Shown here in pieces: positions 7,618 through 33,404 of a stretch of 33,404 bases of DNA. Made by a program: the position numbers and the translations under genes. Source of the DNA: an uncultured Bacilli bacterium (lineage in GTDB: Bacteria > Bacillota_I > Bacilli_A > RF39 > UBA660). The stretch's first letter is position 1. Every line of letters begins with the position of its first letter. The notes beneath the pieces are model-generated. The model saw only the letters and a program-made list of their open reading frames with translations. It made no database searches and had not been told where the DNA came from. The DNA lies in assembly GCA_947623755.1 (NCBI GenBank), contig CANQHB010000001.1, forward strand, positions 1 through 33,404, in the 5' to 3' direction.

Positions 7618-7929
7618 TTATACTTTAGTTACACAATGACTATCTCCTCCTCCGGCATTTATGTGATTAGATACCAATATAACATCATTCCCACTTCCAA
7701 ACAAACTTTGAGCTTTCTTTGGTCTATTATTAGAATCTAAAGTAACATCACTATCTCTAGTTAATGCACTTTCAATACCTAATTGATCCAACCTATCTTT
7801 CATATACTTACTAATCATTAAAGTATAATCTTTTTCTAATATTCCATTTGCACTAGTACCGCCATCAACTCCCCCATGACCAGCGTCAATTACCACTTTT
7901 TTACTTGCTCTATCATCCATGTTTATCAC
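7618..7929 (-). pseudogene. N-acetylmuramoyl-L-alanine amidase (Amidase_3, CwlD-like), 3'-truncated
   Basis: VVIDAGHGGVDGGT and VSNHINAGGG are the first two conserved Amidase_3 blocks. The ORF then runs into unrelated residues (DSHCVTKV) and stops at 103 aa, about half of a normal catalytic domain. Confidence 0.6.
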
Positions 7930-10609: not shown

Positions 10610-10930
10610 TTATCCTTTCATCATCTTAATTAAATCTTCCTCTTTTTCCTGATAACTTAATTTAATTATATCTTTCTTTACCATTATAATATAATTTACG
10701 CCATTTTTAAATAATTTTTTATTATCCTGAATAATCATTCTAAGTTGTCTTTTAATTTTATTTCTTTCCACGGCTTTGCCACATTTTTTACTCACGGCCA
10801 GTCCAAACTTCGGATAATCGCTATCCCCATCCTTATAATATATATTATAGTAATGACTTTTTATGTACTTACCTGTCTTAATTATATCATCAAAATCTGT
10901 ATTTTTCTTTATAATTTCATATTTTTTCAA
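10610..10930 (-). CDS. rnpA: Ribonuclease P protein component
   Basis: 106 aa, basic. KFGLAVSKKCGKAVERNKIKRQLR matches the RnpA RNR motif region. It lies directly downstream of rpmH. Confidence 0.9.
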   Translation of the reverse strand: MKKYEIIKKNTDFDDIIKTGKYIKSHYYNIYYKDGDSDYPKFGLAVSKKCGKAVERNKIKRQLRMIIQDNKKLFKNGVNYIIMVKKDIIKLSYQEKEEDLIKMMKG

Positions 10931-20834: not shown

Positions 20835-21319
20835 TGTTTCACGTGAAACATTATTTCTCACTCTCTTGCTAAATTATCCTTTCAAGAATAATCTAAATAA
20901 CATAAAACTATTTTGATTCATGTTTTAAAAATGTAAATAACTAAAAACTTACTAACAATGTTTCACGTGAAACATTGTTTTAATATTCAAACTAAAAATT
21001 TATTAATAATTATTTATTTAATAAAAAATTAAATTAAAAAAATAAATAAACAAAATTTAAAATTCATTTTTAAATATAAATTTATTAAATATAAAATATA
21101 ATAGAATAATATTTTATATTTTTTAAAATAAAAAATGAAAATTAATTTCAAATAAATTATTAACATTTCTAATGTTTCACGTGAAACATTAGAAATAACA
21201 AAATTAAATAAAAAATAGTTCAAAATTAATTAAAAAAATTAGCAAAAGTTACTCACAATGTTTCACGTGAAATCTTTAAAACTAAAAAAATGTCAAAAAT
21301 CAATGTTTCACGTGAAACA
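20835..21319. repeat. Cluster of five parS (ParB/Spo0J-binding) palindromes in an intergenic AT-rich spacer
   Basis: TGTTTCACGTGAAACA is perfect at 20835-20850, 20959-20974, 21173-21188 and 21304-21319; each extends to the 20-bp palindrome AATGTTTCACGTGAAACATT. A 2-mismatch copy, TGTTTCACGTGAAATC, lies at 21259-21274. This matches the Firmicute parS consensus. Confidence 0.85.
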
Positions 21320-21352: not shown

Positions 21353-21358
21353 AATAAC

Positions 21359-21436
21359 GTGCAACAAATATATTGTAACCTGGTCAGAGTCGGAAGGCAG
21401 CAGCCACATCAATCCCTATTTGTGTGCACTTTTTTA
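21359..21436 (+). ncRNA. ffs: Small (4.5S-type) signal recognition particle RNA
   Basis: The conserved domain IV sequence is CCTGGTCAGAGTCGGAAGGCAGCAGCC, with a GGAA tetraloop. The closing helix pairs GTGCAACAAATA (21359-21370) with TATTTGTGTGCAC (21417-21429), followed by T6. In Bacilli the equivalent gene lies beside tadA/dnaX. Confidence 0.8.
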
Positions 21437-21450
21437 ATGGAGGAATAAAT

Positions 21451-27691: not shown

Positions 27692-30600
27692 ATGGATTTT
27701 TTAACTAATTATTTTAAATATGACAATAATTTAACTATAACCGGTCTAACTCCTACGTTAGCCCATTTTTACGTGTCTAAATTATTTGCCACCAAAAACC
27801 AAAATATTCTCGTCTTAACTTCTACTTTATATGAAGCAAACGAATTATATCGTGGTATTAAAAATTTTGTTAATAATACCTATTTATTTCCAATGGATGA
27901 TTTTTTAACCAGTAAAGCCCTCGCTATATCTCCCGAATTAAAAACTAATCGTATTGAAACTTTAGAAGCTATAAAAGACCATAAAGGAATAATTGTTACT
28001 AATCTTATGGGTTATTTAAAATTCTTAACTGATACTAACGTCCAAAATAAATTAAATATTAAACTAAGTAAAAATATGGACATTAATCGAAATAAATTAA
28101 TTGAAATTTTAGAAGAATTAGGCTATAAACGCGAAACTATTGTAACCACCACTGGCGAATATGCGATAAGAGGTTTTGTTATTGATATTTTTGTTACTTT
28201 AAGCGACCATCCTATCCGTTTAGAATTTTTTGGTAATACGATTGAGTCTATTCGCTATTTTGATGAAGAAACCCAAATGTCTATTTCTGAAATTGAAAGC
28301 ATTATTTTAATACCTAATGGTGAAATAAAAACCGCTAAAAATTCTTCACTATTTGATTATTGCGCTAATCCTATCGTCGTCGCCGTCGATGAAAACCGTC
28401 TTAAAGCTAGTTACCAAAAACTTGAAGAAGAAATGTTTGAATACCGCGTTTCTAAAGATTTAGACCCCAATACTAAATTTATGTTTTCTCCTAGTGATAT
28501 TCCGGTTAAATATACAATCTATCTTAATTTTATTGATAATAAAAAAACAGCTAATTCTCTTAATTTTACCAGCCAAACTTTAACTAACTTTAATTCTGAT
28601 TTTACGCGTCTAAAAGAAGCGACGAAAGTCTGGTATAATAAAGGCTATGAAATAATTTTCTATTTATCTAAACCCAATCAAATCAAAATAATAAAAGAAG
28701 AAATTGAAGTGCCTTATAAAGTCTATAATTCTTACTTAGAAAAAGGTTTCATCTTCGATAAACATGTTGTTATTTCGGAAAATGATATCGAAAACATTGC
28801 GAAAAAAGAAATAAGGTATAAAAATTCCTATAAAATTGGTCGGAAAATAAAAGATATAAATAGTCTTAATATTGGGGATTATGTTGTTCATATGGCTCAT
28901 GGAATTGGTATTTATAATGGCCTTAAAACTCTTACCCAAAATGGTCTTGCAAAGGATTATATCGAAATATTATATGATGGTAATGATAAAGTATATGTAC
29001 CAGTCGAAAAGATGAATACGATTTTAAAATATGCCAGTAAAGATGGCCTAAAACCAAAAATTAATAAATTAAACTCTACTTCTTGGGCTAAAACCAAACG
29101 AAGTGTTGCCAAACGTATTAAAGATATTTCCGAAGAATTATTAAAATTATATGCCGCTCGTCTAGCCATGAAAAAAGATGCCTATGAATCTAACCCTATG
29201 GAAGCAGAATTTGCCCAATCTTTTGAATATATTCCCACTAAAGACCAGGAAAAAGCTATCGCCGAAATATCTAAAGATTTATCAAGTCCTGTACCTATGG
29301 ACCGTCTTTTATGTGGTGACGTTGGCTTTGGTAAAACCGAAGTTGCTTTCCGGGCTATGTTTAAAACTGTCTTAAATAATAAACAAGTCTTTTACTTATG
29401 TCCTACCACTATTTTATCCAAACAACAATATACTTCCGCTTTAAATCGTTTTAAAGATTATCCTCTAAATATTGCTTTATTAAATCGTTTTACTTCTCCA
29501 AAAGATACTAAGCAAATCTTAGCGGATTTACAAAATGGTAAAATCGATATTGTTTTTGGTACTCATCGTTTATTAAGTGATGACGTTAAATTCCAAAAAT
29601 TAGGACTTTTAATTGTGGATGAGGAGCAGCGGTTTGGTGTAACGCATAAAGAAAAGATTAAATCTTTAAAAAATGATATTAACGTCTTAACTTTATCGGC
29701 GACCCCCATTCCTCGGACTTTAAAAATGGCCATGTCTGGCCTTCGGGATTTATCAATTATTGATACAGCCCCCGTAAATAGATATCCCATCCAAACTTAC
29801 GTCTTAGCAAATGAAGACTTAATAGTGAAAGACGCTATATATAAAGAATTATCCCGTAAAGGTCAAATATTTGTCTTATATAATAATATTGAAGGCTTAG
29901 ATAGTATTATTAGAAAATTATCTACTTTAGCCCCTGAAGCTCGTATTGTCAGGGCTCATGGTCGCATGACCAAACAAGAACTTGAAAATATTATGCAAGA
30001 CTTTATCGATTATAAATATGATATTCTAGTTTGCACCACCATTATTGAAACCGGTATTGATATTCCTAATGCTAATACTTTAATTGTTTATAACGCCGAC
30101 CACTTTGGTCTTGCTCAGTTATACCAAATTCGGGGTCGAGTAGGGCGGTCTAATAAAATTGCTTATGCTTATCTTTTATATGATAAAAGTAAAGTCCTAA
30201 ATGAAACGGCCATTAAAAGATTAGACGCCATTAAAGAATTTACCGAACTCGGAAGTGGTTATCGTATTGCCATGCGTGATTTAGCCATTCGTGGTGCCGG
30301 TGATATTTTAGGAAGTGAACAAGCGGGTTTTGTTGATTCTGTAGGAATTAACTTGTACATGCAAATGATTGAAGAAGAAATGCGCCGTTTAAAAGGCGAA
30401 GAAGTAAAGGAAGATACCAGCAAAACTGCACTTATAAATGTTGCTACCCACATTGCGGATGACTATGTCTTAGATGATGAACTAAAAATAGAAATTCATA
30501 ATAAAATAAATGAAGTCTCATCTAAAGAAAGTTTTGACCGTATCAAACATGAATTAGAAGACCGCTTTGGTAAATTAAATGAAGATATTTTAATCTATAT

Positions 30601-30871
30601 GTATGAAGAATGGTTTGAAAAACTAGCTAGTGACTTAAATATTACTAAAGTTACCCAAACTAAGAATTTTATTGAAGTTGACCTACCTCCCGAAGTATCT
30701 AATAATATAAAGGCCGATAAATTATTCTTAGAAAGTTATAATATTAATCCTAACTTAAAATATAAATATCAAAATAAATGTATCAAAATCTCTTTAATTA
30801 TTAAAAAAGACGATAAGCATTTCTTATATACTTTTGTCCCATTACTAGAATTAATTAAGTCCTACTTATAA
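27692..30871 (+). CDS. mfd: Transcription-repair coupling factor Mfd
   Basis: CarD/RID GDYVVHMAHGIGIY, helicase motif I GDVGFGKTEVAFRA, motif II VDEEQRFGV and motif VI QLYQIRGRVGRS. At 1059 aa it is shorter than the ~1150-1180 aa typical of Bacilli. Confidence 0.95.
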   Translation: MDFLTNYFKYDNNLTITGLTPTLAHFYVSKLFATKNQNILVLTSTLYEANELYRGIKNFVNNTYLFPMDDFLTSKALAISPELKTNRIETLEAIKDHKGIIVTNLMGYLKFLTDTNVQNKLNIKLSKNMDINRNKLIEILEELGYKRETIVTTTGEYAIRGFVIDIFVTLSDHPIRLEFFGNTIESIRYFDEETQMSISEIESIILIPNGEIKTAKNSSLFDYCANPIVVAVDENRLKASYQKLEEEMFEYRVSKDLDPNTKFMFSPSDIPVKYTIYLNFIDNKKTANSLNFTSQTLTNFNSDFTRLKEATKVWYNKGYEIIFYLSKPNQIKIIKEEIEVPYKVYNSYLEKGFIFDKHVVISENDIENIAKKEIRYKNSYKIGRKIKDINSLNIGDYVVHMAHGIGIYNGLKTLTQNGLAKDYIEILYDGNDKVYVPVEKMNTILKYASKDGLKPKINKLNSTSWAKTKRSVAKRIKDISEELLKLYAARLAMKKDAYESNPMEAEFAQSFEYIPTKDQEKAIAEISKDLSSPVPMDRLLCGDVGFGKTEVAFRAMFKTVLNNKQVFYLCPTTILSKQQYTSALNRFKDYPLNIALLNRFTSPKDTKQILADLQNGKIDIVFGTHRLLSDDVKFQKLGLLIVDEEQRFGVTHKEKIKSLKNDINVLTLSATPIPRTLKMAMSGLRDLSIIDTAPVNRYPIQTYVLANEDLIVKDAIYKELSRKGQIFVLYNNIEGLDSIIRKLSTLAPEARIVRAHGRMTKQELENIMQDFIDYKYDILVCTTIIETGIDIPNANTLIVYNADHFGLAQLYQIRGRVGRSNKIAYAYLLYDKSKVLNETAIKRLDAIKEFTELGSGYRIAMRDLAIRGAGDILGSEQAGFVDSVGINLYMQMIEEEMRRLKGEEVKEDTSKTALINVATHIADDYVLDDELKIEIHNKINEVSSKESFDRIKHELEDRFGKLNEDILIYMYEEWFEKLASDLNITKVTQTKNFIEVDLPPEVSNNIKADKLFLESYNINPNLKYKYQNKCIKISLIIKKDDKHFLYTFVPLLELIKSYL

Positions 30872-30911
30872 AATACTTGCTTTTTCTAAATAATATCTTT
30901 ATAATAATAAT

Positions 30912-30980
30912 ATAGGGGCGCCAAAGTGGTGTTCTCCTAGTACATGGAATAGTTGAACACCAAAGGTGTTCTATTTTTTT
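30912..30980 (+). ncRNA. Candidate small RNA unit 1 (own promoter, conserved 25-nt core, intrinsic terminator)
   Basis: Promoter TTGCTT-17-TATAAT (30877-30905). Core GGCGCCAAAGTGGTGTTCTCCTAGT (30917-30941). Terminator GAACACC-AAA-GGTGTTC plus TATTTTTTT (30955-30980). No ORF. Confidence 0.5.
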
Positions 30981-31025
30981 CAAAAAAGCTTGCATTTTTT
31001 CTCTCATATGTTATATAATATTACT

Positions 31026-31107
31026 AGGACATACAAAAAGAGGCGCCAAAGTGGTGTTCTCCTAGTCCAAGAACTGTTTGAACACCAAAAGGTGTTCTAT
31101 TTTTTTT
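31026..31107 (+). ncRNA. Candidate small RNA unit 2 (paralogue of unit 1)
   Basis: Promoter TTGCAT-18-TATAAT (30990-31019). Identical 25-nt core (31042-31066). Terminator GAACACC-AAAA-GGTGTTC plus TATTTTTTTT (31080-31107). The ends are estimates. Confidence 0.5.
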
Positions 31108-31168
31108 GGCCGTCGATAATTCTTATACAAAGTACAAGAATAACGACTAGTATTACTAAATACTCCAT
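31097..31168 (-). CDS. Candidate 23-aa hydrophobic peptide (type I toxin-like): MEYLVILVVILVLCIRIIDGQKK
   Basis: Hand-translated. AGGAGG lies 3 nt upstream of the ATG at 31168. One TM-length hydrophobic stretch is followed by a charged tail. The stop codon (31097-31099) sits in the 3' arm of the sRNA unit 2 terminator. An overlapping alternative 45-aa ORF (31062-31199) lies behind GGAGGTGAGG. Confidence 0.3.
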   Translation of the reverse strand: MEYLVILVVILVLCIRIIDGQKK

Positions 31169-31235
31169 AAACCTCCTGTAAAAATACAAAAGTAATCATG
31201 GACCTCACCTCCAATCTATAATTTAAAAAAACTAT

Positions 31236-31271
31236 GGACTAAAGGATAAAACACCAACATTGGTCGCCTCT
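31236..31271 (-). repeat. Third, inverted and diverged copy of the sRNA core, forming the 5' leader of the small-ORF transcript
   Basis: Minus strand: AGAGGCGACCAATGTTGGTGTTTTATCCTTTAGTCC, versus unit 2 AGAGGCGCCAAAGTGGTGTTCTCCTAGTCC. It is preceded by TTGCAT-18-TGgTAAAAT (31278-31307, minus strand), the same promoter architecture as unit 2. Confidence 0.5.
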
Positions 31272-31334
31272 AAAGCCATTTTACCATTAAAATAAACTAT
31301 AATGCAACAAAAATCGGTCGACAAAATTCGACAC

Positions 31335-31366
31335 AAAAAAAGTTAATAACTATCTTCTTATTAACT
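31335..31366 (-). terminator. Rho-independent terminator of the XRE gene
   Basis: Perfect 9-bp stem AGTTAATAA/TTATTAACT with an 8-nt loop, followed by T6 on the minus strand. It overlaps the stop codon. Confidence 0.65.
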
Positions 31367-31596
31367 TACTTTAATATACTTTTAGGATAGGGCTTTCTAA
31401 TATCAGTTCTCCCAATTAGATAATCAACAGACACCCCATAAAAATCCGCCAAAATATCAAGTCTTTCAATAGGAATAGATTGAATACCAAGCTCATATTT
31501 AGAATATTGTTGCTGAGTTGTATTTAGAAGTTTTGCTATATCCGATTGATTTAAGTCTTTATCTTCTCTAATCTCTTTAAGTTTAATAATATTCAT
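31366..31596 (-). CDS. XRE-family helix-turn-helix transcriptional regulator
   Basis: 76 aa with a canonical HTH_3 (LNQSDIAKLLNTTQQQYSKYELGIQSIPIERLDILADFYGVSVDYLIGRTD). Confidence 0.85.
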   Translation of the reverse strand: MNIIKLKEIREDKDLNQSDIAKLLNTTQQQYSKYELGIQSIPIERLDILADFYGVSVDYLIGRTDIRKPYPKSILK

Positions 31597-31740: not shown

Positions 31741-33249
31741 ATGAAAATTGAGAAATTAAATTATGGAAAAGAAAAAAATAAAAGAATGTTTTTATATGGC
31801 TTCATAGTGGCAGTAGTACTTCTTATTTTAGTAAATATCATTGCTAGTAAAGCCATGTACCGAAGAACTGAAAGTGTGCAGTTAGCAACCGGAACAGTCA
31901 ATTATTCCTTAGCTGATTTAAATATTATAGCTATGTATCAAGAAAAAGACAGTTATAATACTGAAGAAGATAAATATAAAAGTATTGAAGAAATACCAAC
32001 AAAAGGATATACTTTAAATAAAGAAAAATCCGTATGTAAAGTAAATAATGATAAAGAAGAAGAAATAGAAATAAAAATTATAAATAACAAAATAACAATA
32101 TCTAATATGACAAAGAAAGGTACAAAATGTTATTTATATTTTGATAAATATGTTAAATCTGGAATGCAAACATTAGCAGATTTGAAATTAAATAAAGATG
32201 GAATACTAGGAGATTCCGTAACAGGAACAGCATGTAATAATGGTTGTACAATAACAAATCAAAATGGAATATATGAAACCGAAGATGATGATGGAAAAAG
32301 TTATATATTCCGTGGAACAGTTGATAATAACTGGTTAAAGTTTGGAAAAATTAAAAATAGCCCAAATGATATCTGGTGGCGGATAATCCGGATAAATGGT
32401 GATGGAACAATAAGAATAATTTATGCCGGCGAAGGAACAAATTTTGGTACAACAGGAAATGGGACAAATGCATTGAATTATGTAGCATATAATACAAATT
32501 ATAATGATAATACGTATGTAGGTTATTACTATGGTTCAACAGGTGGAAACGATTTTAAAGCAACTCATTCAAATAGTACACCAAGTGATATAGCCAGTGC
32601 AACAAACAATTGGTTTAGTAACACTACTAATTTAAATGAAACCACTCAATTAAATCATATTGATGAAAATGCGGGATTTTGCAATAATAGACAAATTAGT
32701 ACAAATGTTAGAGAATGGTGGACAGGTGAAGGAACTGCAGATAGAGGAACCGGAACAGTAGTAACAGCTTACAAAGGAATGTATAATACCCAAACTGCCA
32801 CAGCAGTTTGGCGAACAGATGTAAATTATGCAAGTTTAAAGTGTAGTAGTAGTGCTAATAATTTTGAAGATAATGAAGATTATAAAAGAGATTATTATAC
32901 ATTAAAAGAAAAAGCAACAAGAGGTAATAAAGCTTTAGATTATCCAGTAGGACAAATTACCATGGATGAAGTAATACTTGCAGGAGGATTTGGAGGAAAA
33001 TCAAACTCTGGATATTGGTTAACTTCCAAAACTACCTATTGGACAATGTCTCCACGTTACATGTTCACCCTGAGTTATGTAGGCATGTTCACTGTGAATA
33101 GTAACGGCTACCTCGGCGACATTAAGGCGGACGACACTACTATTGGTATTCGCCCCGTAATCAATCTAAAACCTGATAACGTAACATTGCAAAATCCTAA
33201 TGGAGATAATAAAGGAACAACGTCAAATCCTTATATAGTTAGTGATTAA
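31741..33249 (+). CDS. Membrane-anchored secreted protein of unknown function (N-terminal signal-anchor, Asn/Thr/Gly-rich ectodomain)
   Basis: Lys-rich N-terminus followed by a TM segment, FLYGFIVAVVLLILVNIIA. The C-terminal block YWLTSKTTYWTMSP...IGIRPVINLKP recalls the W-x-x-SP ... G-(V/I)-RP-x-(L/I) signature of uncharacterised Firmicute surface-protein domains (DUF6273-like, from memory). RBS GGAGTAGGGAAG. Confidence 0.7.
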   Translation: MKIEKLNYGKEKNKRMFLYGFIVAVVLLILVNIIASKAMYRRTESVQLATGTVNYSLADLNIIAMYQEKDSYNTEEDKYKSIEEIPTKGYTLNKEKSVCKVNNDKEEEIEIKIINNKITISNMTKKGTKCYLYFDKYVKSGMQTLADLKLNKDGILGDSVTGTACNNGCTITNQNGIYETEDDDGKSYIFRGTVDNNWLKFGKIKNSPNDIWWRIIRINGDGTIRIIYAGEGTNFGTTGNGTNALNYVAYNTNYNDNTYVGYYYGSTGGNDFKATHSNSTPSDIASATNNWFSNTTNLNETTQLNHIDENAGFCNNRQISTNVREWWTGEGTADRGTGTVVTAYKGMYNTQTATAVWRTDVNYASLKCSSSANNFEDNEDYKRDYYTLKEKATRGNKALDYPVGQITMDEVILAGGFGGKSNSGYWLTSKTTYWTMSPRYMFTLSYVGMFTVNSNGYLGDIKADDTTIGIRPVINLKPDNVTLQNPNGDNKGTTSNPYIVSD

Positions 33250-33310
33250 TTCTTCTTGCCAATATTGCTTTTCTTATTCAAATATTGGCAAGATATGATT
33301 ATCTTTTTAT

Positions 33311-33338
33311 GGTAGAGTTAAACTCTACCTCTTTTTTT
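33311..33338 (+). terminator. Rho-independent terminator after the 502-aa gene
   Basis: GGTAGAG-TTAAA-CTCTACC followed by TCTTTTTTT. A separate perfect 12-bp-stem hairpin precedes it: CTTGCCAATATT (33255-33266) pairs with AATATTGGCAAG (33281-33292). Confidence 0.7.
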
Positions 33339-33404
33339 AAATTCCTAAGTATAAAAAAATTTACTTCGCTAATATTAATATTAGAAATGGAGTTGTATTA
33401 CTTG

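Follow-up and report, generated by a model that had tools for sequence, protein, structure and literature searches.

Two tandem units after mfd in an uncultured gut Bacilli bacterium: probable antisense RNA genes facing a predicted convergent small-ORF mRNA

Directly after mfd, in the 33,404-nucleotide stretch of DNA that we analysed (the window), stand two tandem units that are probably small antisense RNA genes, partners of a convergent mRNA with a small open reading frame; the whole would resemble a toxin–antitoxin system of type I whose antisense gene has been duplicated. The antisense RNA is most likely the antitoxin partner of that mRNA, and the module of this uncultured gut bacterium is most likely of a toxin–antitoxin-like kind that existing catalogues lack. 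A first-pass annotation had taken the units for two candidate paralogous small-RNA genes; our analysis supports it in this and sees no riboswitch in them. It had also likened them to free-standing multicopy sRNAs, a constant scaffold around a variable seed, and here we part company with it. It had overlooked their partner on the opposite strand. Why, then, is the core constant between the units? Because, we argue, it exactly complements the 3′ arm with which the minus-strand mRNA folds back on itself (Table 1).

The layout of the units is as had been described. An identical 25-nt core (GGCGCCAAAGTGGTGTTCTCCTAGT) occurs in exactly two plus-strand copies, where the number expected by chance is zero even at up to three mismatches; after it comes a 13-nt segment that differs between the copies (ACATGGAATAGTT in unit 1, CCAAGAACTGTTT in unit 2); and each unit ends in a GAACACC/GGTGTTC hairpin of seven pairs and a T-run, both called by the terminator scan. 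The two cores agree at 25 of 25 positions and the hairpin with its T-run differs by one extra loop A, whereas the 13-mer and the promoter spacers have diverged. Such uneven conservation suggests, to judge from the alignment, selection or gene conversion acting on the parts that pair. An A-rich 5′ leader is present in unit 2 alone, and its complement is the U-run 3′ of the mRNA's 3′ arm. Folded by itself, unit 1 reaches −19.8 kcal/mol (z −3.3) and unit 2 −21.0 kcal/mol (z −3.1), with core UGGUGUUC paired to GAACACCA and GCGCC to GGUGU; the alternative GGTGTTC/GAACACC pairing proposed earlier is real and is seen in the minimum free energy (MFE) fold of each unit, from which the proposed GCCA/UGGU 5′ hairpin is absent. 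That the units hold no ORF is right insofar as none is credible, although mechanical ORFs do overlap them (a Pfam search with these gave no match).

Table 1. Features downstream of mfd, with positions in the window
Feature	Positions	Strand	Details
Unit 1 promoter-like site	30877..30905	+	TTGCTT (30877-82), 17-nt spacer, TATAAT (30900-05); read from sequence; 9/12
Unit 1 predicted sRNA, ~69 nt	30912..30980	+	
Unit 1 parts	core 30917-30941, variable 30942-30954, hairpin 30955-30971, T7 30974-30980	+	
Unit 2 promoter-like site	30990..31019	+	TTGCAT (30990-95), 18-nt spacer, TATAAT (31014-19); read from sequence; 9/12
Unit 2 predicted sRNA, ~82 nt	31026..31107	+	
Unit 2 parts	A-rich 5′ leader, core 31042-31066, variable 31067-31079, hairpin 31080-31097, T8 31100-31107	+	
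Predicted convergent small-ORF mRNA, ~239 nt	31033..31271	-	5′ leader 31271-31250 pairs with 3′ arm 31062-31039, then CUCUUUUUGU
Third, degenerate core copy, AGAGGCGACCAATGTTGGTGTTTTATCCTTTAGTCCA	31235..31271	-	5′ leader of the minus-strand RNA
ORF-A with Shine–Dalgarno (SD) sequence	31097..31177	-	AGGAGG 31177-31172, ATG 31168, TAG 31099-31097
Upstream SD GGAGG (31212-31208) and ATG 31199	31197..31212	-	alignment with L037
Minus promoter-like site	31278..31307	-	TTGCAT 31307-31302, 18-nt spacer, TAAAAT 31283-31278; predicted start ~31271
Conserved 25-mer, TGTCGAATTTTGTCGACCGATTTTT	31309..31333	-	two Spo0A-box-like heptamers, TGTCGAA (31333-27) and TGTCGAC (31323-17), direct repeat, 10 bp apart
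AT-rich hairpin and T-run, likely HTH gene terminator	31335..31372	-	inverted repeat
HTH gene	31366-31596	-	HTH_3 assignment

The minus-strand RNA is predicted to fold back upon itself. Between its leader and its 3′ arm RNAfold finds 21 pairs, 20 of them Watson–Crick, the z score of the fold is −9.4 (−8.6 for a longer stretch, 31290 to 31030), and both its SD sequences (SD1 and SD2) are paired in the MFE. Since the core is the complement of the 3′ arm, the mRNA's leader resembles a third, degenerate core, and it is indeed the best non-self local alignment of the unit 2 core in the whole window on both strands (score 32 vs a background maximum of 21), beginning exactly at the predicted +1 of the minus promoter. 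This leader copy has indels, which is why an ungapped inverted-repeat search missed the closing helix. No canonical local terminator follows the minus-strand RNA, only the long-range helix and then the run given in Table 1, and its 3′ end is therefore a guess.

What might such an RNA encode? ORF-A specifies a hydrophobic peptide of 23 aa (MEYLVILVVILVLCIRIIDGQKK; GRAVY 1.5, best 13-aa hydropathy window 3.59) and, on a predicted RNA of ~239 nt, has the form expected of a type I toxin, a small (<60 aa) hydrophobic peptide ORF on a short mRNA. Its stop adjoins the unit 2 hairpin, its SD stands only 3 nt from its ATG, and its product is 43% and 35% identical to the peptides of a related locus, L123, with the same polar–hydrophobic–charged layout. 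The upstream SD with ATG 31199 is homologous to the start of the 33-aa ORF of another relative, L037, and opens a 45-aa ORF-B that is out of frame with ORF-A's stop. That is, a homologous start and a homologous stop lie 103 nt apart in different frames, so that an ancestral ORF may have been broken here, and given the frame problem either ORF of the minus-strand RNA may be the one translated. As a conserved protein ORF-B was rejected: among 1.84 billion representatives it had only spurious matches to long repetitive proteins, and it is not hydrophobic. ORF-A, ORF-B and the related peptides matched no Pfam or NCBIfam profile at E ≤ 10, profiles being weak on 23-aa queries, and none of the known type I toxin families (Fst/Ldr, TxpA, BsrG, Hok, Ibs, TisB and others) had a profile match to the peptides.

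Over its whole length the sRNA of unit 2 is antisense to the minus-strand RNA's 3′ part, which it overlaps in cis, and that of unit 1 is complementary to it over 25 nt and the hairpin. The predicted duplexes amount to −98 kcal/mol for unit 1 and −135 kcal/mol for unit 2 (cofold ddG −40 and −79), and because the leader and 3′ arm together offer only −41 kcal/mol, the models favour invasion of the closing helix by either sRNA; in the predicted cofold the SD1 helix is lengthened when the sRNA is bound. The transcription of the two kinds of RNA, the translation and toxicity of the peptide, control by Spo0A and the outcome of pairing are inferred; the last would run as follows. An mRNA started at a promoter behind two Spo0A-box-like repeats would be locked closed by the pairing of its 5′ leader to its 3′ end, its two ribosome-binding sites being paired as well. 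Unit 2, in cis, and unit 1, a stand-alone duplicate whose identical core and terminator would pair in trans over ~25+24 nt, would each supply an sRNA that enters the closing helix and builds a long perfect duplex with the mRNA's 3′ region. The peptide would then be kept unexpressed through cleavage and decay of the RNase III type, through a firmer sequestration of the SD, or through both, as happens with SR4 on bsrG and RatA on txpA in Bacillus subtilis. Pairing at the fold-back arm could in principle also open the mRNA rather than silence it.

If the partner is in cis, must the targets be there too? One might suppose instead that the units are trans-acting multicopy sRNAs whose single-stranded seed (the 13-mer plus CUCCU) finds distant mRNAs, independently of the minus-strand RNA. 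Two copies with identical ends and different middles fit that picture, unit 1 is antisense to nothing in cis, and CUCCU is able to pair with SD sequences. We nevertheless think it quite unlikely. The core is explained by its complementarity to the convergent RNA and has a paralogue in that RNA's leader. The variable segments do not behave like the seeds they had been proposed to be: that of unit 2 is antisense to a loop of the minus-strand mRNA, that of unit 1 finds no complement elsewhere in the window, and in the MFE the 13-mer lies in a partly paired hairpin loop. CUCCU, offered before as an anti-SD motif, complements AGGAG in the 3′ arm of the mRNA, and the trans role that it might still play, over ~8–9 bp, is not above chance. 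Nor did RNAduplex find the sRNAs to pair with the non-overlapping part of the minus-strand RNA any better than shuffles (p 0.31 and 0.44), a comparison that also rules out a 5′ interaction like that of par. And no further copies appeared in the GTDB representatives, in 80 related mfd loci or among plasmids, phages and viral contigs.

The same searches bear on whether the core is a dispersed repeat of the REP or MITE kind, or marks the ends of a small mobile element. The inverted cores at 31042 and 31271 bracket ~170 bp, a direct copy accompanies the inverted pair, and the spacer between mfd and the HTH gene is variable among relatives. All three core copies, however, lie within a single 400-bp locus of the window and there are no others in it; the exact 21-mer of the core is found in 0 of 185,579 representative genomes (GTDB). 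A gapped core/terminator pattern was not found in viral contigs, the 461-bp locus had no blastn match among plasmids and phages, and blastn-short with the units and the minus-strand RNA found no match in the 80 related mfd loci, nor in all 131 loci. The inverted copy, moreover, differs by indels and by transitions that preserve RNA pairing, and analogous modules have quite different arms at the same functional positions, which points to a constraint on RNA and not to a transposase site. We regard a dispersed repeat or a mobile element as very unlikely. The copy search called for at the outset yielded no dispersed copies in these collections, and the covariation given below therefore comes from relatives and not, at the sequence level, from the two units themselves.

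A pair of cis-acting attenuators or riboswitches, in which terminator and antiterminator respond to a ligand or a protein, is the reading that the mutually exclusive pairings of GGUGUUC, GAACACC and GGUGUUC might bring to mind. We find it scarcely credible, in that no plus-strand gene comes next for such a switch to control (the 260 nt beyond are taken up by the convergent unit of the minus strand and, after it, by the HTH gene's end) and the fold-back design already accounts for the triple heptamer. The earlier statement that the units match no known RNA family held even at E ≤ 10, where cmscan against Rfam over 30800–31400 returned only sub-threshold chance matches (CRISPR-DR63, at 22 bits vs a gathering score of 37, and snoRNAs). 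At the gathering threshold Rfam found only SRP RNA in the whole window and only T-box in seven related loci, and its antitoxin and sRNA models (RatA, SR4-type, Fst RNAII, SprA1as and others) did not match the units.

The probable antisense pair faces an mRNA whose promoter has a signature of its own. The two heptamers of the conserved 25-mer end 9 nt before the −35 box, and the core of the 0A box is TGTCGAA (PMC3485338); a consensus 0A box thus stands at the minus promoter, which may be under Spo0A control. The pattern TGTCGAATTTTGTCGAMCGNTTTTT is carried, exact, by 47 other metagenome loci before unrelated genes, and among the sequences listed of these loci a −35-like hexamer follows the 25-mer by 1–2 nt, as it does in the window. 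A different promoter, TTGTCG-17-TATAGT, was replaced by TTGCAT-18-TAAAAT since the related −35 boxes directly follow the conserved 25-mer, and this choice puts +1 on the first base of the leader copy (~31271). We also set aside a reading of GTCGAATTTTGTCGAC as the HTH gene's terminator: in the 47 loci the pattern stands before the promoters of unrelated genes, a stem is impossible for most copies, and the HTH gene has an AT-rich hairpin of its own. One related locus, L130, adjoins spoIVA, which makes its host, at least, a spore former. If our reading is correct, the conserved cassette suggests that expression of the peptide is tied to the stationary-phase or sporulation switch.

At least eight modules, found in metagenomes and in MAGs of related gut Bacilli, repeat the layout with unrelated sequences: a promoter with tandem Spo0A boxes, an mRNA that folds back and carries a small ORF, and, converging on it, an antisense promoter with its terminator. 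Loci L037, L087, L088, L085 and L123 (two tandem modules) have this architecture with arms unrelated to ours, fold z scores of −5.4 to −9.7 and 21–29 long-range pairs; L021 and L027 are further members, to which the peptide of L087 led us, the only useful one in tblastn searches that with such short peptides gave mostly noise. Run on four of the members, RNAalifold retrieves the closing helix (20 pairs, three with compensatory changes) and an internal hairpin, also with compensatory change, which is the antisense terminator. This covariation comes from analogous modules that cannot be aligned with ours, and none of it is direct for the two units. What computation shows, then, is the repeats, their complementarity, the folds and an architecture that recurs, with compensatory change, in relatives. 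The L123 paralogues differ by seven synonymous and four conservative changes over 26 codons, and the substitutions in the peptides of related modules are, by their sequences, of the coding type. The peptides of the closest branch (L087, L021 and L027) are not hydrophobic, and for that reason the label of membrane toxin may not be valid for the whole class.

The promoters of the units had been called near-consensus, which is true of the −10, a perfect TATAAT in both, and overstated for the −35, which matches TTG only (3/6); the promoter scan listed neither, a score of 9/12 being below its −35 threshold. (TATAAT is frequent in DNA of 30% GC.) Their positions relative to the core are nevertheless those of the antisense promoters of related modules, which the scan calls at the equivalent place in L037 (10/12, TG), in L123 twice (10/12, TG) and in L085 (10/12), and antisense terminators are called in L123b and L085.

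One may still ask whether the units are genes at all. They could be plus-strand terminators only, with unit 1, whose hairpin is also the first terminator 3′ of mfd, ending mfd transcription, and on the minus strand they would be the structured 3′ end of the small-ORF RNA; TTG...TATAAT would then be a chance product of AT-rich DNA, and unit 1 a neutral partial duplication. The lack of any other terminator from the mfd stop (30871) to 30955 speaks for this, as do the poor −35 boxes, not called by the scan, and a count of promoter-like sites in the 2-kb region that equals the shuffle expectation (12 vs 11.0). But both units combine a perfect TATAAT with TTG at 17–18 nt, so placed that the start falls just before the core; the core and hairpin of unit 1 match those of unit 2 though the flanks diverge; and the antisense promoters of analogous modules are co-located, three of them scan-called at 10/12, with −35, −10 and +1 aligned across four loci (L037, L087, L021 and L027). 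On this balance we consider terminators without genes rather unlikely, and continue with antisense RNA genes.

Could the modules form a class? Tentatively, and with more doubt than conviction, we propose one that is widespread in uncultured gut Bacilli and undescribed. Its toxin promoter would be wired, through tandem consensus 0A boxes, to the master regulator of sporulation and stationary phase; its toxin mRNA would be shut by a 5′–3′ closing helix; and its antitoxin RNA, a paralogue of the mRNA's own 5′ leader, would compete for the 3′ arm, so that a single helix might serve as lock, terminator and antitoxin target. Duplication would have given a cis and a trans copy, one of them tied to read-through from mfd. 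If this is true, type I toxin–antitoxin-like modules become known from a branch of the gut Bacilli that is large, uncultured and poorly annotated, and in which gene finders call none of these RNAs or peptides. Relatives in the branch include Mycoplasma sp. CAG:776, Ca. Caccenecus and Ca. Coprovivens. The tandem 0A-box cassette would be, besides, a handle on genes controlled by stationary phase or sporulation in these metagenomic lineages, and there is a lesson for annotation: where paired sRNA candidates have a “constant core”, it should be compared with the other strand.

How, finally, does the module compare with systems already known? In the part of the work on Clostridioides difficile drawn on here (PMC6563280), CD2517.1/RCd8-type pairs, likewise convergent, overlapping toxin and antitoxin genes of a gut Firmicute, show long complementarity that suggests decay, and their toxins were previously unannotated and not homologous to known families. 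Those toxins, unlike ours, have 50–53 aa and lie in prophages or adjoin CRISPR arrays, and a fold-back or leader-mimic feature was not found described in that part of the source (PMC6563280).

With hok/sok of plasmid R1 and aapA1/IsoA1 of Helicobacter pylori, the module shares an upstream start and reading frame that precede or overlap the toxin ORF, as mok does. In those systems the mRNA is closed by a long-distance 5′–3′ interaction (fbi/tac in hok) and is untranslatable, and our full-length toxin mRNA is likewise predicted to be closed by 5′–3′ pairing, which recurs in six other modules. Their antisense RNA, however, pairs with the 5′ part of the mRNA, from within it, whereas ours approaches convergently from outside it and has the 3′ arm as its target; the units have no above-chance complementarity to the 5′ part of the mRNA. 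Those systems also belong to another phylum and have no sequence similarity to ours.

The par system (Fst/RNA II) of Enterococcus faecalis pAD1 is alike in its convergent toxin mRNA and antitoxin RNA, its shared terminator, the repeats near the 5′ ends that relate the two RNAs, and a toxin that is small and hydrophobic with a charged tail. There, direct repeats read in opposite directions give complementary 5′ ends, whose pairing blocks the ribosome-binding site. In the window the repeat is inverted, the two 5′ ends are alike and not complementary, and pairing takes place at the 3′ end of the mRNA; the terminator has a U-run on one side only, and the Rfam antitoxin models have no match.

The type I toxins of B. 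subtilis compared here are peptides of 38–59 aa, much longer than our 23 aa, and neither peptide nor RNA shows sequence or profile similarity to the module. The layout is closer. In Gram-positive type I families the 3′ side is where the antisense RNA lies, in part overlapping the mRNA, and tandem repeats are typical (PMC8594479); bsrG/SR4, txpA/RatA, bsrE/SR5 and yonT/SR6 are, like our units and their partner, convergent, the antisense RNA overlapping the 3′ end of the small-peptide mRNA (PMC8594479). In these as in ours the end of the ORF meets or contains the antisense terminator, the mRNA sequesters its own SD, and the expected outcome is duplex-dependent decay by RNase III (PMC3834814, PMC3531473), which SR4 combines with a longer SD helix on bsrG (PMC3834814). 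The design, if our reading is true, would join this Gram-positive 3′ overlap to the fold-back lock of hok and aapA1, with the lock itself as the antitoxin's target. Two further features set the module apart from the B. subtilis systems: its antisense gene has been duplicated without the toxin, and its antisense target is the 3′ arm of a 5′–3′ closing helix, and therefore the sRNA resembles the mRNA's own leader.

Much of what the first-pass annotation had described in the two tandem units behind mfd held up. The 25-nt core that they share occurs exactly twice in the window, the 13-nt segments after it differ as described, a terminator scan calls the hairpin and T-run ending each unit, and the mutually exclusive alternative fold exists and is the minimum-free-energy structure; Rfam gave no match even at E<=10. 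The promoters, presented as near-consensus, have a -10 without mismatches, but their -35 agrees with the consensus at TTG alone, and so they are weaker than stated. The core itself, taken for a constant scaffold, is instead the complement of one arm of a different, predicted RNA. Further copies of the window's own sequence were sought in representative genomes, viral contigs, plasmids/phages and related mfd loci, and none was found.

What is this other RNA? In local alignment against both window strands, the best non-self match of the unit-2 core (AGAGGCGACCAATGTTGGTGTTTTATCCTTTAGTCCA, 31271->31235, minus strand) is a single outlier: it scores 32, and the background goes no higher than 21. A promoter-like site lies shortly upstream of it. 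Between 31290 and 31030 the minus strand folds at -90 kcal/mol (z -8.6), with this leader copy of the core paired to the antisense of the unit-2 core and CUCUUUUUGU after the helix; folded from the predicted start, the RNA reaches z -9.4 with 21 long-range pairs. Both of its Shine-Dalgarno (SD) sites are paired in the predicted fold, and its 3' end, as placed by prediction, is uncertain. Pairing with one and the same arm explains the likeness of leader and core, and the "constant core" is thus the complement of the closing helix's 3' arm.

The predicted duplexes with this minus-strand RNA come to -135 kcal/mol for the product of unit 2 and -98 for that of unit 1, far stronger than the intramolecular lock (-41), so that invasion is thermodynamically favoured. 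We conclude that the units are probably two copies of an antisense, antitoxin-like RNA gene: unit 2 would be the cis-encoded gene and unit 1 a stand-alone duplicate retaining exactly the pairing parts. The small RNA would invade the closing helix, and in the cofold the freed leader extends the helix over the first SD site; a weak point is that pairing with the fold-back arm could open the mRNA rather than close it. Two details fit the two-copy antisense reading. Only unit 2 has an A-rich 5' leader, whose complement is the U-run after the minus-strand 3' arm, and the terminator of unit 1 is the sole one after mfd, so that mfd transcripts may carry the unit-1 sequence as their 3' UTR as well.

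Features of the window and of related modules (L-numbers are loci from related gut Bacilli genomes or metagenomes)
Feature	Position	Strand	Remarks
Mfd	27692-30871		identified by Pfam domains
HTH_3 gene, 76 aa	31366-31596	minus	Pfam
502-aa protein	31741-33249	+	no Pfam match; N-terminal hydrophobic segment read from sequence
Promoter 25-mer	31309-31333	minus	TGTCGAATTTTGTCGA(A/C)CGNTTTTT, shared with L037; two Spo0A-box consensus heptamers, direct repeat, 10 bp apart
GGAGG-N8-ATG	31212-31197	minus	downstream of leader core copy
AGGAGG-N3-ATG	31177-31166	minus	downstream of leader core copy
ORF-A, 23 codons	stop 31099-31097	minus	MEYLVILVVILVLCIRIIDGQKK; stop abuts unit-2 hairpin
L037 mRNA promoter			TTGACA-17-TAGAAT
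L037 mRNA leader			GAACATTTAAGACGAGTGCCTAC
L037 SD and 33-aa ORF
L037 mRNA 3' arm			GTAGGCATTTGTTCTTAAATGTTC
L037 antisense promoter		opposite	TTTACA-17-TAAAAT; starts RNA with complement of 3' arm
L088 module			peptide MDEEKKYLFIIIILLLLVLLKAM
L123, two tandem modules			peptides MSDT[KT]LLL[IV]IIIML[VI]SIIRDDHKK[KR]R
L085 and L130 modules			peptide MKKDNRFLKLVIILLLIIYLLTIIKSA
L087 module			fold-back small-ORF RNA and convergent antisense unit
L021 and L027 modules			adjoin mfd/HTH genes of relatives; reached via L087 peptide

The same arrangement, in different sequences, lies between the HTH gene and mfd at L037, whose Mfd is 82% identical to that of the window. The two have only three things in common: the SD region, the ORF end (CCA.A.AAAATAG) and a 25-mer ahead of the promoter, which in the window is directly upstream of the -35. 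The Spo0A box consensus is TGTCGAA (PMC3485338). A scan of JGI/ENA metagenomes for this promoter 25-mer gave 47 loci (L085-L131); among those whose sequence was read, it stands 1-2 nt before a -35-like hexamer upstream of many different genes (a VirB4/T4SS-like ATPase, a UvrD-like helicase, a CspA-like cold-shock protein, small peptides), named from translated sequence rather than by profile search and unrelated on that reading. L085 has a third box, and the L130 module adjoins spoIVA. Such exact conservation before unrelated genes at 47 loci suggests a common regulator-binding cassette, and the 25-mer looks like a portable promoter/regulator element.

At several of these loci the 25-mer is followed by a fold-back small-ORF RNA and, converging on it, an antisense unit. 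The seven modules that were folded all gave z -5.4 to -9.7 with 21-29 5'-3' pairs. RNAalifold on the four alignable members recovered two elements, the closing helix and the hairpin of the antisense terminator, and each of them shows compensatory changes. Antisense promoters were called by scan in L037, L123 (twice) and L085, and their positions align in L037, L087, L021 and L027; antisense terminators were called in one L123 module (L123b) and L085. Of the substitutions between the two L123 paralogues, 7 are synonymous and 4 conservative over 26 codons, so selection acts on this ORF as coding sequence. Tandem duplicates of entire modules, from the boxes and promoter to the fold-back mRNA and antisense unit, occur at L123:7268-7967 and L027:7960-8425.

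Which peptide would the window make? ATG 31199, which has the best SD of the start codons and is the homologue of the L037 start, is 103 nt from TAG 31099-97, the homologue of the L037 stop. The two are therefore one base out of frame, and the stretch between them contains T5 and A8 homopolymer runs. A true frameshift, a mistake in the assembly or an overlapping frame of the mok kind could each account for the offset (31097-31199, minus). The window has either lost the intact ancestral ORF or makes the internal ORF-A instead, whose own SD stands at a short spacing of 3 nt. ORF-A is 43% and 35% identical to the two L123 peptides in an alignment without internal gaps; a sequence search with the 45-aa ORF-B returned no real homologues. 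In the L087/L021/L027 branch the peptides lack hydrophobic character. In one branch the putative toxin start carries a conserved GATGTAAATG (L088:4430-4445; L123:7420-7430, 7765-7775); this is a start-stop ORF of minimal length (AUG UAA) that overlaps the main AUG, and L088 additionally has a 4-codon uORF (MKDR*) across its SD.

The window is one complete contig of 33.4 kb; its host is an uncultured low-GC gut bacterium, and the window sequence is also present in four ENA metagenome assemblies. Its Mfd is 75-84% identical to those of rabbit, mouse and human gut "Bacilli bacterium" MAGs, Mycoplasma sp. CAG:776 and Candidatus Caccenecus. NCBI taxonomy assigns Caccenecus to Bacilli incertae sedis, and likewise Candidatus Coprovivens, which is more distant. 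Past mfd come the two units, ~260 bp without a long ORF, the minus-strand HTH_3 gene and the gene for the 502-aa protein, which is merely 30-40% identical between close relatives. That gene, paired with at least one XRE-type HTH gene, adjoins mfd in one orientation or the other in many related MAGs (L073, L037, L019, L087, L088 and others); together they appear to be a fast-evolving surface-protein cassette, which the toxin-antitoxin-like modules tend to adjoin.

The post-mfd spacer differs among relatives. In L007, the relative whose HTH gene comes closest (82% identical), it holds, in place of the RNA module, ~11-nt tandem repeats (GATACACAAAATGGTACACAAAGTGATACACAAGGTGGCACACAAAGTG; L007:4836-4940) and a 329-aa minus-strand ORF. 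Relatives have mfd, a SpoVT/AbrB-like gene and a metG-like gene in succession, the ancestral order, which is absent from the window; in L021 a T-box leader (10686-10896, 108 bits) is upstream of the metG-like gene. Elsewhere in the window, a small bacterial SRP RNA (21353-21438, +; Rfam RF00169, 54 bits) of just 86 nt directly precedes deaminase and dnaX genes, with AT-rich tandem repeats at 21012-21097 immediately upstream. All five assemblies (window 33250-33404; the ends of L001-L004) stop less than ~150 bp past the 502-aa gene, and this shared break suggests repeat or strain-variable sequence just beyond.

Taken as antisense partners in a type I toxin-antitoxin-like module, the units are, we think, somewhat better than an even bet; we go no higher because of the weak -35, the uncertain 3' end, the frame problem, the non-hydrophobic branch, the want of a known family and the possible opening of the mRNA. 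Profile searches of the peptides and Rfam searches, for the window and related loci, matched no peptide or RNA to a known family, and every sequence or profile test of membership in a known system failed. In layout the module is a Gram-positive type I locus: an RNA with strong predicted structure buries its SDs and carries a small ORF, in many cases a hydrophobic one, and a small RNA converges on it and overlaps its 3' end. In bsrG/SR4, 3'-end pairing has two effects, decay of the mRNA and a longer helix sequestering the SD (PMC3834814), and in txpA/RatA RNase III is the key nuclease (PMC3531473); with that group the window module has the 3' overlap in common, as predicted here from sequence, with hok/sok and aapA1/IsoA1 the 5'-3' lock, and with par the convergent genes meeting at a terminator. 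Unlike in all of these, the predicted antisense target in the window is the 3' arm of the lock, so that the antitoxin would look like the leader of the toxin mRNA.
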